DNA of 64,000 bases from Candidatus Latescibacterota bacterium (GCA_965203805.1 OZ241917.1:1280001-1344000); one strand, 5' to 3'. Counted from the first letter of the stretch, positions 27,332-62,013 are shown. Numbers and translations are program-made. The notes: generated by a model from the sequence alone, not told the origin.

Positions 27332-27360
27332 TCGCTCTTGCACTTTCGTTTCCCTTCGGG

Positions 27361-27576
27361 TCAGCCGTCGCGACGGTCTGTTGGCCTGTTCTGTGTCGAA
27401 TTGCGAATCCGCGCGGCCATCGCTTCCAGCACGGGGTCGGAATACCGCCTGGAATTGAACCACTCCACCGTTTCCTCTGCTGTCATGTCGGCGGTTTCGG
27501 CAGTAATGCGGGCGCGGGCCTTGCGCATGAACTCGACACAGTCGAAATTCTTCTTGCGGCGGGGCTCTTCAGTCAT
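27361..27576 (-). CDS. Small FDC-motif protein (putative PIN-associated antitoxin)
   Basis: KKNFDCVEFMRKARARITAETADMT; near-duplicate of 30421-30636. Confidence 0.7.
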   Translation of the reverse strand: MTEEPRRKKNFDCVEFMRKARARITAETADMTAEETVEWFNSRRYSDPVLEAMAARIRNSTQNRPTDRRDG

Positions 27577-27726
27577 GGACGATTTCCTCGGGCGCGCAAA
27601 TGTCGATAGCACCGAATCCATTCTGACAATTGACCTCGTTGCAGGCCCTGATGCCATGCCAGTTCACCATCTGTCTGAAGCTCCAGCTTGCGCTGAAAGC
27701 CTCCACTCCCTTCCCGATCTTCATCA

Positions 27727-27963
27727 TCAATCGCCCTCGGCGCCGGATCGTCCGACGTCGCTTGCCCTATCGTCCTGCCAGGGTCGCACAACCCTGGACT
27801 TCGGAATGCGAGCGAAGAATGGATCTTTTCGGACAGCCGCATTGAGCCGCCGACGCCGCTCTTCCGGTGACATCCCCACCAGTTCCGCGTTGATCCTGTC
27901 CCGGACCTCGCGCGTCCACTTTACGCAGTCGAAAGCCCTTGCGCTGCTCTCACTATTCTTCAT
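27727..27963 (-). CDS. Small FDC-motif protein (putative antitoxin)
   Basis: AFDCVKWTREVRDRINAELVGMSPEER; overlaps end of PIN relic. Confidence 0.7.
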   Translation of the reverse strand: MKNSESSARAFDCVKWTREVRDRINAELVGMSPEERRRRLNAAVRKDPFFARIPKSRVVRPWQDDRASDVGRSGAEGD

Positions 27964-28111
27964 TTACATGCTCCGTCGGGCTGCGCATGTCCACCGGTGG
28001 GTATCCCATGCGCCGGTTCACCGCGTTGTACATCCTGATTCGCCACAGGTTCACCATGTGCCTGAAGTTCCAGCCTGTCGCCATCCGTAGCGGTGACGCG
28101 TGCGTATTCAT
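27953..28111 (-). pseudogene. Internally deleted PIN toxin relic
   Basis: WNFRHMVNLWRIRMYNAVNRRMGY matches the PIN C-terminus fused to HsdM (WNFRHMVNWRRNRLYNAVNRQMGY). Confidence 0.8.
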
Positions 28112-28259: not shown

Positions 28260-28920
28260 GGGTGGTCAGGTCCCAGGTGTGAGCAGCAGAGGCCAGACCC
28301 GGGCGTGGTCAGAATTCATGGGTCTGAGTTAGCCATGACTTCCTTGTGTTCTACAGGTATTCAACATGCCCGGCCATCTCTTCGGCTTCCAAAACCTGAT
28401 AGATCAACATCAAGCCACGAATTATCTCACCAACCGTGTTTTCTTGAGACGTGTAGACAATTCCTCTGTGGTCAGGTACAATTGCTGCAAGACGAAGAAA
28501 GTCATCGTCCTGCGTGAAGATGACTCGTTCTGTTTCCCTGGCAATTCCAAGGATTACCTCGTCTGACGCACCAAGATTCCCGGCTTCGGCAACAGTCAGT
28601 ACGTCCACGCCTCTCCGACGGAGCCCCATTACAATTGCTCTGGAGACATTCTCATGGAAGCTCTGATTAAGTTACCTATTGGCACGCCATGCAGAAAGTC
28701 GTAGAATTGGAGCGTGAGCCGTCGTGTTGTGATTTCTGATGGATCGACATAGAACGAGGGGCCCAGGGATGAAACAAATGAGTTTTTCGGATCTGGCGTA
28801 CAGGACGAAGAAGAAGCAGACGCGCAGGGAACGTTTTCTGAAAGAGATGGATGCGGTGTTGCCGTGGGAGATACTGCTTAAATCGATTGAGAGGAAGTAT
28901 CCGAAACCTGGCAACGGTCG

Positions 28921-28947
28921 CCTGCCTGCCGAGTCGGCGCAGGCAGG
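28921..28947. repeat. CCTGCCTG hairpin mini-insertion 1 (27 bp)
   Basis: CCTGCCTGCCGAGTCGGCGCAGGCAGG; removal restores GNGRRPIG. Confidence 0.92.
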
Positions 28948-29057
28948 TCGTCCGATCGGTGCGGAGGTGATGCTGCGTATCTACTTTATGCAACAATGGT
29001 ATGGATTGAGCGATCCGGGAATGGAAGACAGTCTCTACGACGTGGAGTCGATGCGTC

Positions 29058-29076
29058 CCTGCCTGCTGCAGGCAGG
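29058..29076. repeat. CCTGCCTG hairpin mini-insertion 2 (19 bp)
   Basis: CCTGCCTGCTGCAGGCAGG; removal restores SMRRFAG and the reading frame. Confidence 0.92.
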
Positions 29077-29612
29077 GCTTTGCGGGTGTGAACATCAACG
29101 GCGTACCTGATGAGACGACGATCTGCAAATTCCGTCACTTTCTGGAGCACCATGGGTTGACGGAAGCGTTGTTTCGGCAAACGAAGCGCTACTTGTCCAG
29201 GCGGGGATTGATCGTGAACGAAGGCACGATCGTGGATGCCACGATCATTCACGCGCCTTCTTCGACGAAGAACAAGGATCGGAAACGGGATCCTGAAATG
29301 GCCAGCACGAAGAAGGGCAACACGTGGCATTTCGGCATGAAGGCGCACGTGGGCGCGGATGTGAAGGGACGGGTGCACAGTGTGGTGACCACCCCCGCTT
29401 CGGTGCATGATTCGCAGGCGATGGATGCCTGTCTGCACGGAAAAGAAAAGACCATCTACGGCGACAAGGCCTATGCGGATCAGACGCGAAAAGAACGGGC
29501 CGAAGCCAACGACGTGGAATGGCGAGTGCTTCGCAAGGCCCGCCGGGGCAAGCGGCTCAACTGCGCGGATGTTTCGTTCAACAAGAAGAGCAATCGCACG
29601 CGCGCACGGGTC

Positions 29613-29648
29613 CCTGCCTGTGCGTGCTGTCTCACGCACGCAGACAGG
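29613..29648. repeat. CCTGCCTG hairpin mini-insertion 3 (36 bp)
   Basis: CCTGCCTGTGCGTGCTGTCTCACGCACGCAGACAGG; removal restores RARVEHPF. Confidence 0.92.
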
Positions 29649-29981
29649 GAACATCCCTTTGGGATCATCAAACACCTGTGGGGCTACCGAAAGGTCAGGT
29701 ATCGCGGTCTGGCGAAGAATACGGCGCATCTGTTCACCTTGTTTGCCTTGGCTAACTTCCATATGGCACGTCAGGAACTGGCTACTACATAGGCACCCGT
29801 GCCTCCAATTCGGACGCTGGCGGCCAAAATGGCCGGCACCGAGCGCATCCGGGGCCGGAATCACCCGTGCAAACCCGAAAGATGACGACCCTCTCAACAT
29901 AAACAGCCTCCGAAACGACCCATAAGTTACAACTTGCTCATTCCCTCTGGTTGATCAGAGGTTCCCTCATCGGTCAAAAAC

Positions 29982-30311
29982 TTAATCGTTGCCATGTTGG
30001 GTCGAGTCTTGGATCTTTTGGGAAATCTTCGAAGAAAACTTCTGACGCAAGGAATCTACAAATGCTCGACTCTCCTCAAGCGATCGGTCAATCTCATTCT
30101 GATGATCGAAATAGTAAGCCAGTGCTGCGTATACATCCGCCAGGGAAATGTCGTAATCACTGGCGATTTCGTCGGCGCTCTTGCCCAGGCGCTCGTGCCA
30201 GATGACGATATTCTCGACGGCAATTCGACGACCGACAATGCGCGGTTTGCCACCTGAAATGCCCGGGGTGATCTCAATATGTTGATTCAGGGTTTCCGTT
30301 GTCATTTCCAT
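29982..30311 (-). CDS. DUF433 domain antitoxin
   Basis: IEITPGISGGKPRIVGRRIAV...ADVYAALAYY; upstream of DUF5615. Confidence 0.93.
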   Translation of the reverse strand: MEMTTETLNQHIEITPGISGGKPRIVGRRIAVENIVIWHERLGKSADEIASDYDISLADVYAALAYYFDHQNEIDRSLEESRAFVDSLRQKFSSKISQKIQDSTQHGND

Positions 30312-30420
30312 CTCCTCCTGAGTTCAGCGACCGTCACGGAGCCCTCACGTTCATCGCCGACATCAAAGAAGAACCGGGGTCGGGGCGTCGCCCGCCCTTG
30401 CGCGTCAGTTTCCCTTCGGT

Positions 30421-30636
30421 TCAGCCGTCGGGACTGTCTGTTGCCCTGTTCTCATTCGATTTGCGTATTCGCGCGGCCATTGCTTCCAGCACAGGGTCGG
30501 AATACCGCCTGGAATTGAACCACTCTATCCGTTCGTCAGCAGTCATATCGGCGGTTTCGGCCGTAATGCGGGCGCGGGCCTGGCGCATGAATTTGACACA
30601 GTCGAAATTCTTCTTGTGGCGGGGGCTTTCAGACAT
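30421..30636 (-). CDS. Small FDC-motif protein (putative antitoxin)
   Basis: KKNFDCVKFMRQARARITAETADMT...YSDPVLEAMAARIR. Confidence 0.7.
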   Translation of the reverse strand: MSESPRHKKNFDCVKFMRQARARITAETADMTADERIEWFNSRRYSDPVLEAMAARIRKSNENRATDSPDG

Positions 30637-30900
30637 GGACGATTTTCTCATGGGCTCGATTGTCGATCGTGGCGTATCCATTGACGCCATTGCAGAGCAC
30701 GATGCGCATGAATCCTTCTATGCGGGAAAAGGCTTTAGGTCGGGGATCATGGAGTTACCCATAGAGAGTATCTCGTACTTCGCGATTGAATAAACCAAAA
30801 AGACCCGCAACGTCGGCAATGATTCAGTCAAGCGTCCCGACTCGCTCGTCCCGATGCCTCGGTACGGTCTCGCCGTGCCGGCTGCTTGTCAAGCCATTGA

Positions 30901-59361: not shown

Positions 59362-60029
59362 ACGTTGGACTCCTGGTATTCTGTCCCATAAATGGAATGA
59401 ATGGATCCGAACCGGGACCTTAATTCGACAAAAGCAGCGACGCGGCGCCGCGACAGAACCTCCCGAAACGGGCCGAAAAGGTCGTCCGGATGGACATTTT
59501 TCCGTTCACGTCAAGTGACCTGACGTGTCATAGAAATCAGCAGTTAAATCGCCTTTATTCACTTGCACATATTCGAATTAACGTCCCCGAATAAGTAGAG
59601 TCGGGATGTGGCGCGGTAGTTTAGGAGTGGCCTATCCGTTTCCGCCCCTTTCGTCTGGCGGTGCCTCAATAGCCCCTCCGTGCCCCGTTTCCACATCCCG
59701 CTCGTCGAACCGGACGTGCGGTTTTCCCGCATCCGGCTCTCCGACGGACGTCGCCTTCAGGCACACGCTGACCGCGCTGCCCGGACAGCTTCACCTGAAG
59801 CCCAAGCTTGTTCTGGAGTCGCCTCGTCTACTTTTGGAGGAGGTTATAGGCTTGCGCCACTCTCCCGACCGTTGTCCCCTTCACAAGCACATCCGAAGTC
59901 AGGCCCCTTCCCTCCACCGGCGTTACCCGGCTTCACGGGTACTACGAGCCTGTCCGCCACCCCATGCGGCCCGGCCTGTCCCTCACGGGCGTCCGGTTGG
60001 TGTCCCTGCACCACCGCTGGGGCTTCCCG

Positions 60030-60062
60030 CCTGCCTGCCGAGCAGGACTCGGCGCAGGCAGG
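60030..60062. repeat. CCTGCCTG hairpin mini-insertion 4 (33 bp)
   Basis: CCTGCCTGCCGAGCAGGACTCGGCGCAGGCAGG splitting intron motif GGGCTTCCCG|TGTTGCG. Confidence 0.88.
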
Positions 60063-60108
60063 TGTTGCGTCGGATCTCCTTGTATACGTGCCTCCGCCAT
60101 TTCCCCGG

Positions 60109-60135
60109 CCTGCCTGCGTCCCTCGGACAGGCAGG
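60109..60135. repeat. CCTGCCTG hairpin mini-insertion 5 (27 bp)
   Basis: CCTGCCTGCGTCCCTCGGACAGGCAGG splitting CCCCGG|CGGGACCG. Confidence 0.85.
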
Positions 60136-60426
60136 CGGGACCGCTGGATGCTCGCGTTGCTGTCTTTTTCCAGCGACGGCGGCCTTCCCCGATCGTCAGA
60201 CGGGTCGGCTCCCGCATTACCCTTTTCGAGGCCTGCTCAGCGTTCACTGCACGTTTCGGCCCGCATACTCGCCGAGTCGCCTTGCGACCCTCTACACCGG
60301 AGGCTTCAGAGATTTCGTTGCCTACGTCCCTGCTCCGATTGCTACCGACTGAAGCAACCCTTGTCGGGTTGGGACTCTCACCCACTGAAGATCCGCGCCT
60401 TTTCACGGCGCACTGACGAATCAAGG

Positions 60427-61763: not shown

Positions 61764-62013
61764 TGGTGTCCGGTCCCAAAAATACCTCACCATTCTTCCG
61801 CCTGCCTGCGCAGTGCCCTGCCTGCCTGTGCGTGTACGCACGCAGACAGGCGCTGCAGGCAGGCCGATTCATCCCGTCTCGCAGCGTTGCCTTCGCTGGC
61901 CGACCTGGCCAGGTCGCCTGCGCTCTGGCGCTGGGTCCAGAGCCTGTCGAAGGATGCGAGCCGGGCGACTCGACGGCCGAATTCAGGCGACTTATTTTCG
62001 GGACAGAACACTA
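61764..62013. mobile_element. ~250 bp MITE at the TolC stop codon
   Basis: Imperfect TIRs TGGTGTCCGGTCCCAAAAATA / TATTTTCGGGACAGAACACTA; internal palindromes. Confidence 0.7.
61801..61863. repeat. Nested CCTGCCTG mini-insertions 6 and 7 (33-bp outer, 30-bp inner at 61821-61850)
   Basis: CCTGCCTGCGCAGTGCCCTG[CCTGCCTGTGCGTGTACGCACGCAGACAGG]CGCTGCAGGCAGG. Confidence 0.88.

Follow-up and report, generated by a model that had tools for sequence, protein, structure and literature searches.

Short mobile hairpins and palindromes that enter genes have been described in several forms. Rickettsia palindromic elements (RPE), about 100-150 nt long, make in-frame insertions into genes, and the cyanobacterial small dispersed repeats (SDR), which Elhai and colleagues are said to have treated in 2008, are reportedly very small and nested. 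The translational bypass inserts of phage T4 gene 60 and of yeast mitochondria (byps) are short GC-rich hairpins of mobile origin as well. The repetitive extragenic palindromes (REPs) bear a GTAG or CGTC tag, and some are intragenic and in frame; where Di Nocera et al. (2013, PMC3733652) treat the CGTC class, it is presented without an identified dedicated transposase. REPINs are non-autonomous hairpin DNA, for which the relevant part of Bertels & Rainey (2011, PMC3116915) proposes movement via a RAYT (REP-associated tyrosine transposase). Here we describe an IS5-family insertion sequence (IS) whose transposase gene holds three hairpin inserts of 19 to 36 nt, found in a stretch of 64,000 nt, hereafter the window, from a Candidatus Latescibacterota bacterium (GCA_965203805.1, OZ241917.1:1280001-1344000). 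The IS is present in five identical copies, and we consider it probable that REP-like mini-elements crippled one copy, which then spread non-autonomously or by gene conversion.

The IS occupies 28656-29965 on the plus strand, and is 1310 bp long, or 1228 bp without its hairpins. Its assignment to IS5 rests on a match to NF033581, the NCBIfam model of the IS5-family transposase (240 bits against a cut-off of 140), and the protein combines an N-terminal DUF772 (PF05598) with a DDE_Tnp_1 domain (PF01609). The 15-nt terminal inverted repeats (IRs) at 28656-28670 and 29951-29965, both given on the plus strand, are 87% complementary to each other and read GGAAGCTCTGAT... at the left end and ...ATCAGAGGTTCC at the right. 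They are bracketed by a target-site duplication, CTCAT, at 28651-28655 and 29966-29970, to which no strand applies. In the organism's own genome, one contig of 5.87 Mb with 59% GC (G000; other G numbers are relatives, and L numbers are examined loci), the five IS copies are 100% identical over the 1310 bp, differ in their flanks, and share the three inserts. Every copy is bordered by a duplication of its own (TCAA, TTGA, TTAA, GTAC and CTCAT), of 4 bp in four cases and of 5 bp for the one in the window. We also used metagenome runs labelled coral or sponge (X3-X6), for which the evidence consists of Logan contigs, which drop rare variants. TATA is the duplication of the IS at two further sites on metagenome contigs, and contigs of X4, X5 and X6 hold the window locus unoccupied, with 28650 joined to 29966 and the 5 letters in common, which is the empty site.

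All three inserts are hairpins on the plus strand. The first (28921-28947) is 27 nt long and adds nine amino acids in frame, with a boundary that is ambiguous by 1 nt (GGTCG^TCG or GGTC^GTCG). The second (29058-29076; target CGTC^GC) is 19 nt long and shifts the frame, and the third (29613-29648; target GGGTC^GAAC), of 36 nt, adds 12 amino acids in frame between RARV and EHPF, immediately ahead of the presumed catalytic glutamate. CCTGCCTG opens each of the three, while CAGGCAGG closes inserts 1 and 2 and CAGACAGG closes insert 3. Their predicted DNA folds have energies of -10.4, -8.0 and -11.3 kcal/mol, respectively, with fold z values of about -2.5 to -2.8. The same sequences recur elsewhere: the 36-mer of insert 3 is found at three other loci of the genome and in G007, G008, G011 and G015, the 27-mer of insert 1 in G016, and the 19-mer of insert 2 at four other loci of the genome. 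Such recurrence at unrelated places speaks for copying and against an origin of the hairpins by local template switching.

The three insertions are exact, without target duplication, and recent, because related IS copies and a nearly identical copy from coral lack them. The related copies come from the genomes of other members of the genus or family, namely Candidatus Latescibacterota metagenome-assembled genomes (MAGs), and are 77-84% identical by BLAST; they provide base-exact empty sites for inserts 1 and 2 (L018, L019 and L022) and for insert 3 (L018, L019 and L020). The coral-metagenome contig from X4 (record 12) carries an IS more than 99% identical to ours at another site, with the duplication TATA. 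In this copy 27 nt are absent at 28920, 19 nt are absent at 29058, and 29612 is joined to 29649. Only 9 substitutions, clustered in 28801-28893, separate it from the window IS, and its open reading frame (ORF) is open over 313 amino acids. The versions of the IS with no insert, possibly one, and three differ by almost nothing else, and thus offer a natural time series for tiny mobile DNA.

In silico excision of the three inserts leaves 942 nt encoding 313 amino acids, with a terminal stop only, and restores GNGRRP, SMRRFAG and RARVEHPF. The restored product aligns with 313-amino-acid homologues without a single gap column, sharing 255 identical residues with L047 and 236 with L066. A first interpretation of this DNA, made from the sequence alone, had anticipated the restored frame, the retention of the IRs and the CTCAT duplication, and the contexts of the junctions, all three of which are indeed (G/C)GTC^G on the sense strand. 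It had also proposed that insertion was precise and duplication-free and that the hits preceded any other inactivating mutation, and the exact empty sites and the open, insert-free X4 sibling bear out both points. Its picture of a single copy caught just after three hits does not hold, given the five identical copies, and it had taken identical inserts in all copies as the mark of one ancient event; the inserts are identical in all copies, yet the events are recent.

That the inserts are an artefact of assembly or polishing, or natural variation of the transposase, is scarcely credible. The genome, a single contig, seems to derive from a metagenome, and polishing can homogenise repeats, but an independent run (X3) yielded a 988-nt contig whose identity spans inserts 1 and 2 and extends into insert 3, and the hairpins are present in assemblies from other projects. 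Among 76 homologous loci examined, 48 encode proteins of 313 or 315 amino acids, and the aligned homologues are free of the inserts, L065 being the sole exception. X3 also has a loose end at 29948, but its flank is absent from G000, which makes it uninformative.

As it stands, the transposase gene is divided into two parts on the plus strand. The 5' part, with the DUF772 region (28769-29110), runs out of frame past insert 2 to a TGA, and the 3' part, with the DDE domain (29077-29792), lies in the +1 frame relative to it. An intact single ORF, complete with R-x3-E-x6-K and the D, D, E triad, is therefore absent from the gene, and was restored only in silico. The R-x3-E-x6-K region (RarV / eH.FG..K) is kept in 34 aligned homologues, and its glutamate is taken to be the catalytic residue, as established for IS4/IS5 transposases; insert 3 falls between the two halves. 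From the frameshift at the 19-nt insert and the splitting of R-x3-E by the 36-nt one, we infer that the present gene is a pseudogene that has lost its function.

It is improbable that the IS is nonetheless still autonomous, by a +1 shift or hop between the two frames and with the in-frame inserts tolerated, in which case the 19-nt hairpin would have converted an IS with a single ORF to regulation by frameshifting, as in IS1 or IS3. No stop interrupts the downstream frame from 29010 onwards and the stop of the first ORF lies at 29108, leaving an overlap at 29010-29107 (~98 nt) anywhere within which a single +1 event would yield a full-length product. CCC-U (29057-60) and GGG-CUU-U (29076-82), which we take to be +1-prone contexts, lie within this overlap, and autonomy would also fit five identical copies in a genome with no other transposase of this kind, as well as an X5 contig that holds insert 2 when other X5 contigs lack inserts 1 and 3. 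However, there is no comparative sign of recoding, insert 3 splits R-x3-E beside the presumed catalytic glutamate, and the 19-nt insert as a whole has no matched take-off and landing codons around it. Two hairpins elsewhere whose length is not a multiple of three were checked in detail, one in an IS630-like gene and one upstream of a glycosyltransferase domain; neither is inside an essential gene, so that bypass is not demanded. The X5 contigs are separate and may derive from different copies, and we rejected them as proof of a one-insert intermediate for the same reason. Removal of the inserts at the RNA level was also considered and rejected: insert 3 is missing from the sole RNA contig (X6), but equally from the DNA of that sample (X4), so that the contig is uninformative about splicing, and the RNA does not extend over inserts 1 and 2.

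Because the five copies are identical and have the same inserts, the three hits occurred in one ancestral IS copy. In the mechanism that we favour, an active IS of the X4 kind would have been struck stepwise and recently by three hairpin mini-elements, which would be copied to new sites at an exact phosphodiester bond with no duplication of the target, most likely in the form of folded single strands on which a trans-acting enzyme works. With its ends intact, the crippled IS would still be mobilisable, and it may have reached five sites by transposition in trans from an intact sibling that has since been lost here; such a sibling exists in related strains. Gene conversion among existing IS copies would be an alternative route to the five sites. 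A precedent in the same genome is provided by copies of an IS1380-like element, described below, which bear hairpins at separate loci and whose intact relatives are present. A frameshifted transposase gene at five identical copies, with no helper present, makes a testable puzzle.

The site of all three IS inserts is SGTC^G on the sense strand. Such sites are occupied at three of five positions on the sense strand and none of six on the other, and one on the sense strand, at 28720, is empty in all five copies. The chance of three SGTC^G hits is (11/1227)^3, or about 7e-7, a rough figure for a motif picked after the fact. The GTC next to the IS inserts belongs to the target, being present in the empty sites. 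Across the genome, 168 distinct junction sites include 93 of the form G^C and 15 of the form C^G, the latter comprising four IS entries and 10 from one composite repeat among others, and GTC^ is found on one side in only 9 of 154 distinct sites. The targets of the 36-mer at five other loci show no common motif, and a comparison by eye of hairpin interiors with target flanks for guide-like complementarity gave only 4-6-nt matches, which carry no weight.

These observations bear on the possibility that the five IS copies came first and that each was then struck independently at the same three sites by site-specific targeting. Such targeting would agree with the presence of this 36-mer at the corresponding position of a diverged IS lineage, and with the placement of all three inserts at SGTC^G on one strand. 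We nevertheless regard it as very unlikely, as the same event would have had to happen 15 times without a single miss or additional hit, the targets of the 36-mer at five other loci have no motif in common, the site at 28720 is unoccupied, and hairpin occupancy varies among IS1380-like copies that are 97% identical.

The inserts belong to a family of hairpins that is spread over the genome. We searched for the pattern CCTG[CT]CTG...CAG[AG]CAGG (ends CCTGYCTG...CAGRCAGG) and found 282 matches in 231 loci, many of them nested in each other. The members are GC-rich, 19-58 nt long, and carry no gene; the lengths met most often are 33 nt (63 loci), 31 nt (49), 27 nt (15), 19 nt (12), 30 nt (12) and 36 nt (10). 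The longer members have a 2-nt bulge. A gap-free empty paralogous site was found for 63 of the 231 loci. In the window, CCTGCCTG was seen 18 times against 1.84 expected, a number reached in none of 100 shuffles, and genome-wide there are 15 stretches of IS length (1310 bp) with at least three hairpins, five of them being the IS copies, against 0.087 expected under uniform spread, so that chance is ruled out. The family is lineage-specific and patchy among related Latescibacterota genomes: counts per genome were 166 in G000 and 185, 136, 124, 74, 31, 26 and fewer in relatives, with none in 34 of 61 relatives, while the reversed pattern, used as a control, gave 0-1. Some hairpins are asymmetric between strands owing to G·T wobbles, and their orientation relative to the replichore was 54 versus 41; a replication-strand bias was rejected, as this split is unconvincing and inflated by repeats. 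No description of the family was among the matches listed by a full-text search with the motif CCTGCCTGC, which were primers or constructs, and topical searches gave no report of it either.

Repeated or mobile DNA holds hairpins at about 15 times the frequency expected at random: both 100-nt flanks are repeated at 138 of the 231 loci, but at 58 of 1500 positions drawn at random. Hitch-hiking on multicopy carriers must account for some of this excess, because this IS alone supplies 15 loci, and part probably reflects the tolerance of non-essential DNA. Hairpin loci lie within a spanning ORF of at least 150 codons in 104 of 231 cases versus 799 of 1000 random positions, which is a crude comparison, since 59% GC gives long spurious ORFs. 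The choice of target is non-random, but the locally focused insertion put forward in the sequence-only reading is not special to this particular IS, given the spread of hairpins over other repeated DNA and an IS1380-like copy that carries four.

The IS1380-like family of the same genome comprises four hairpin-free copies, each intact over a frame of 489 codons, and four that bear hairpins (G000:C1:433149-434928, 1368430-1370069, 4028072-4029776 and 4184538-4186263), with one to four hairpins in differing combinations. A 21-nt hairpin is common to the four hairpin-bearing copies at their different loci, a frameshifting 19-mer is common to some, and three of the four have their own 4-bp duplications. 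In the copy at 1368430, ~100 nt are missing between two hairpins, apparently through recombination between them. Within the window, two matches to the family pattern at 60030-60062 and 60109-60135 (together 60030-60135) lie in a group II intron on the minus strand (59595-60387), which was identified by Rfam matches to RF02003 at 60249-60387 and RF00029 at 59595-59741; only ~500 nt separate its D1-D4 and D5-D6 matches, and paralogous copies of the intron vary in hairpin occupancy. Nested hairpins of the same family are found at 61801-61863. Taken together with the IS5, IS1380-like and IS630-like cases, this indicates mobile elements that parasitise other mobile elements and then ride on them.

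Hairpins are also part of a composite repeat of 29 copies (G000:C1:3245339-3470697, plus one at 5654669). Its unit consists of a 31-nt hairpin (at GGGTC^GGGG) followed by a second hairpin, CCCTCTCCT-N3-AGGAGAGGG, and the copies are packed in a repeat-dense zone of ~225 kb in which orientation switches twice. An integron with attC sites was considered for this zone (3.25-3.47 Mb) and rejected, the best TIGR02249 match scoring 93 bits against a cut-off of 265; the recombinase encoded there reads as XerD-like.

The exact junctions, the lack of duplication, the hairpin ends, the 2-nt bulge and the G·T-wobble asymmetry suggest, by analogy with IS200/IS605 and RAYT systems, that the hairpins may move as a folded single strand via a trans-acting enzyme. 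No parent element, autonomous and ending in long terminal repeats of the CCTGCCTG type, came to light: the 154 pairs of arms spaced 150-6000 nt from each other included two weak candidates. There is one RAYT in the genome, a match to NF047646 (104 bits) with HUH and Tyr motifs, whose stand-alone gene (C1:4533506-4534114, within L037, G000:C1:4532765-4534725) has inverted doublets of GGGCAGGGATGCCCTC on both sides, ~125 nt apart. This repeat is REPIN-like and low-copy, with 18 arms in the genome, and the same arrangement is seen at the ortholog in G001. A CCTGCCTG hairpin lies 10 nt past the RAYT stop, where the G001 ortholog has an empty site. We rejected the RAYT as the cognate enzyme of the hairpins, as it is flanked by its own GGGCAGGGATGCCCTC repeat and the adjoining CCTGCCTG hairpin is a secondary insertion. 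All six genomes with a RAYT ortholog of ~100 bits contain 16-185 hairpins, though these genomes are related and not independent. A complete RAYT-like Y1 domain with HUH and Tyr regions (NF047646, 91.6 bits) also lies in frame within a 1225-amino-acid DUF1156 methylase-like ORF (L038, G000:C1:4546926-4550600), with a 27-nt in-frame hairpin immediately before the domain, and RAYT-like matches lie within comparably long ORFs (1203-1441 amino acids) in G008, G011 and G016. We consider this embedded domain no more than a lead towards the mobiliser. Finding the mobiliser could also explain the orphan REPs of the CGTC type, likewise without a known transposase.

Several results weigh against the spread of a crippled IS as we have described it. 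Identical copies do not separate transposition of the IS from gene conversion. The trans route needs a recently lost helper, or one in other cells, as the complete 5.87-Mb contig has no helper transposase: tblastn with both transposase halves at E<=1e-5 gave nothing beyond the five IS copies. The crippled IS has about five copies (depth 34 in X3 versus 7-13 in the flanks) and the intact IS is about single-copy in X4 (33.5 versus 30-45), which is the opposite of the naive expectation. The damage done by insert 3 is judged from its position in the motif, and a diverged IS (L017) has the same insert. All three IS inserts lie at (G/C)GTC^G, a class rare elsewhere, which our account leaves unexplained. 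As for movement as a single strand, the single RAYT looks dedicated to another repeat, G015 has 136 hairpins with no RAYT match above 47 bits, and the support for an HUH enzyme is circumstantial.

A further difficulty is the distribution of insert 3. It is present in L017, which is 88% identical to the window IS, with all 36 nt identical and at the same nucleotide, but neither L020, which is 97% identical to L017, nor the X4 copy has it. Such a distribution calls for insertion twice at a single bond or for exact removal twice; one old neutral insertion would need zero changes in 36 nt at 12% divergence (p about 0.01). The same pattern would suit hairpins that are reversible, with a precise excision of the peel-and-paste style in some cells restoring a transposase that acts on all copies. 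Excision of REP doublets has a parallel in the population sequencing of Pseudomonas, as the pertinent part of PMC3116915 reports, although for single REPs that part records no excision found. Copies made after excision should be free of inserts, yet all five carry all three, and we therefore hold reversibility to be unlikely. There is a small chance, slightly better than for either reversibility or autonomy taken singly, that the hairpins are minimal mobile DNA (down to 19 nt) acting as a reversible hyperparasite of mobile elements, entering at an exact bond and leaving exactly or being read through by a +1 shift. If so, the thrice-hit transposase gene would still be usable and the hairpins would be on/off or throttle switches of transposition, which would explain both the five "broken" copies without a helper and the placement of one 36-mer at an identical position in the window IS and a diverged one, although the nearest relatives of each are free of it. 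The crippling of one IS copy by hairpins, followed by its non-autonomous spread or by gene conversion, is still the reading that we prefer.

The window copy of the IS splits a gene for a DUF5615 protein (PIN/Mut7-C-like) ~10 codons past its ATG. The 3' part of this gene lies at 28351-28650 on the minus strand and its first ~10 codons at 29966-29995, and contigs of X4, X5 and X6 hold the allele without interruption. Upstream of it, also on the minus strand, is a DUF433 gene (29982-30311), and the two look like a two-gene pair of the toxin-antitoxin type. The translations of plus-strand ORFs at 27338-28090 and 30299-30793 have a long near-identical stretch in common, which points to a further repeated sequence family on both sides of the IS locus. 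Close relatives of the transposase (L039-L118) are 58-88% identical in amino acid sequence and are present in many identical copies in MAGs labelled as different phyla (Latescibacterota, Gemmatimonadota, Rhodothermales, Gammaproteobacteria and Thermodesulfobacteriota). Their presence under several phylum labels suggests that the IS may have spread horizontally between bacterial lineages.

Compared with known systems, the hairpins are closest in form to REPs, with which they share a size of 20-40 nt, an imperfect GC-rich palindrome, tens to hundreds of copies, restriction to a lineage, and some members that add in-frame residues. In contrast to REPs, they have no GTAG head, and the GTC or CGTC at the IS inserts is target sequence; they are single rather than dimers, often nested, and concentrated in mobile DNA rather than at the 3' ends of genes. 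The likeness to the REPIN/RAYT system lies in non-autonomous hairpin DNA and in the RAYT with HUH and Tyr motifs in this genome, but that RAYT is flanked by a different doublet repeat, and the unit here is a single hairpin of at least 19 nt and not a doublet of ~100 nt. As in IS200/IS605, there is no target duplication, the junctions are exact, hairpins are involved, and the IS inserts all follow the 3' end of a single short motif, always on the same strand. Unlike in that family, the genome-wide junction is G^C (93 of 168) with no fixed tetranucleotide, no replichore bias was seen, and there is no parent that bears TnpA. Miniature inverted-repeat transposable elements (MITEs) are also non-autonomous and multicopy with inverted-repeat ends, but the hairpins make no target duplication and are 5-10 times smaller, and the search for a parent IS bearing long terminal repeats like theirs gave none.

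The bypass inserts are likewise short GC-rich hairpins in coding DNA. They differ from the inserts in this IS in that no matched take-off and landing pair surrounds the 19-nt insert and no such inserts were found in essential genes. RPEs are longer, and the sequences of SDRs are unrelated to our hairpins; to our knowledge, neither has been reported to riddle a transposase gene that then multiplied. What sets the present family apart from known small repeats is the combination of untagged ends, a single unit of down to 19 nt, nesting, a focus on mobile DNA, and a thrice-hit transposase gene that has multiplied. The copying of 19-36-nt hairpins to exact bonds is under way today in this uncultivated phylum, whose members are symbionts of sponges and corals.

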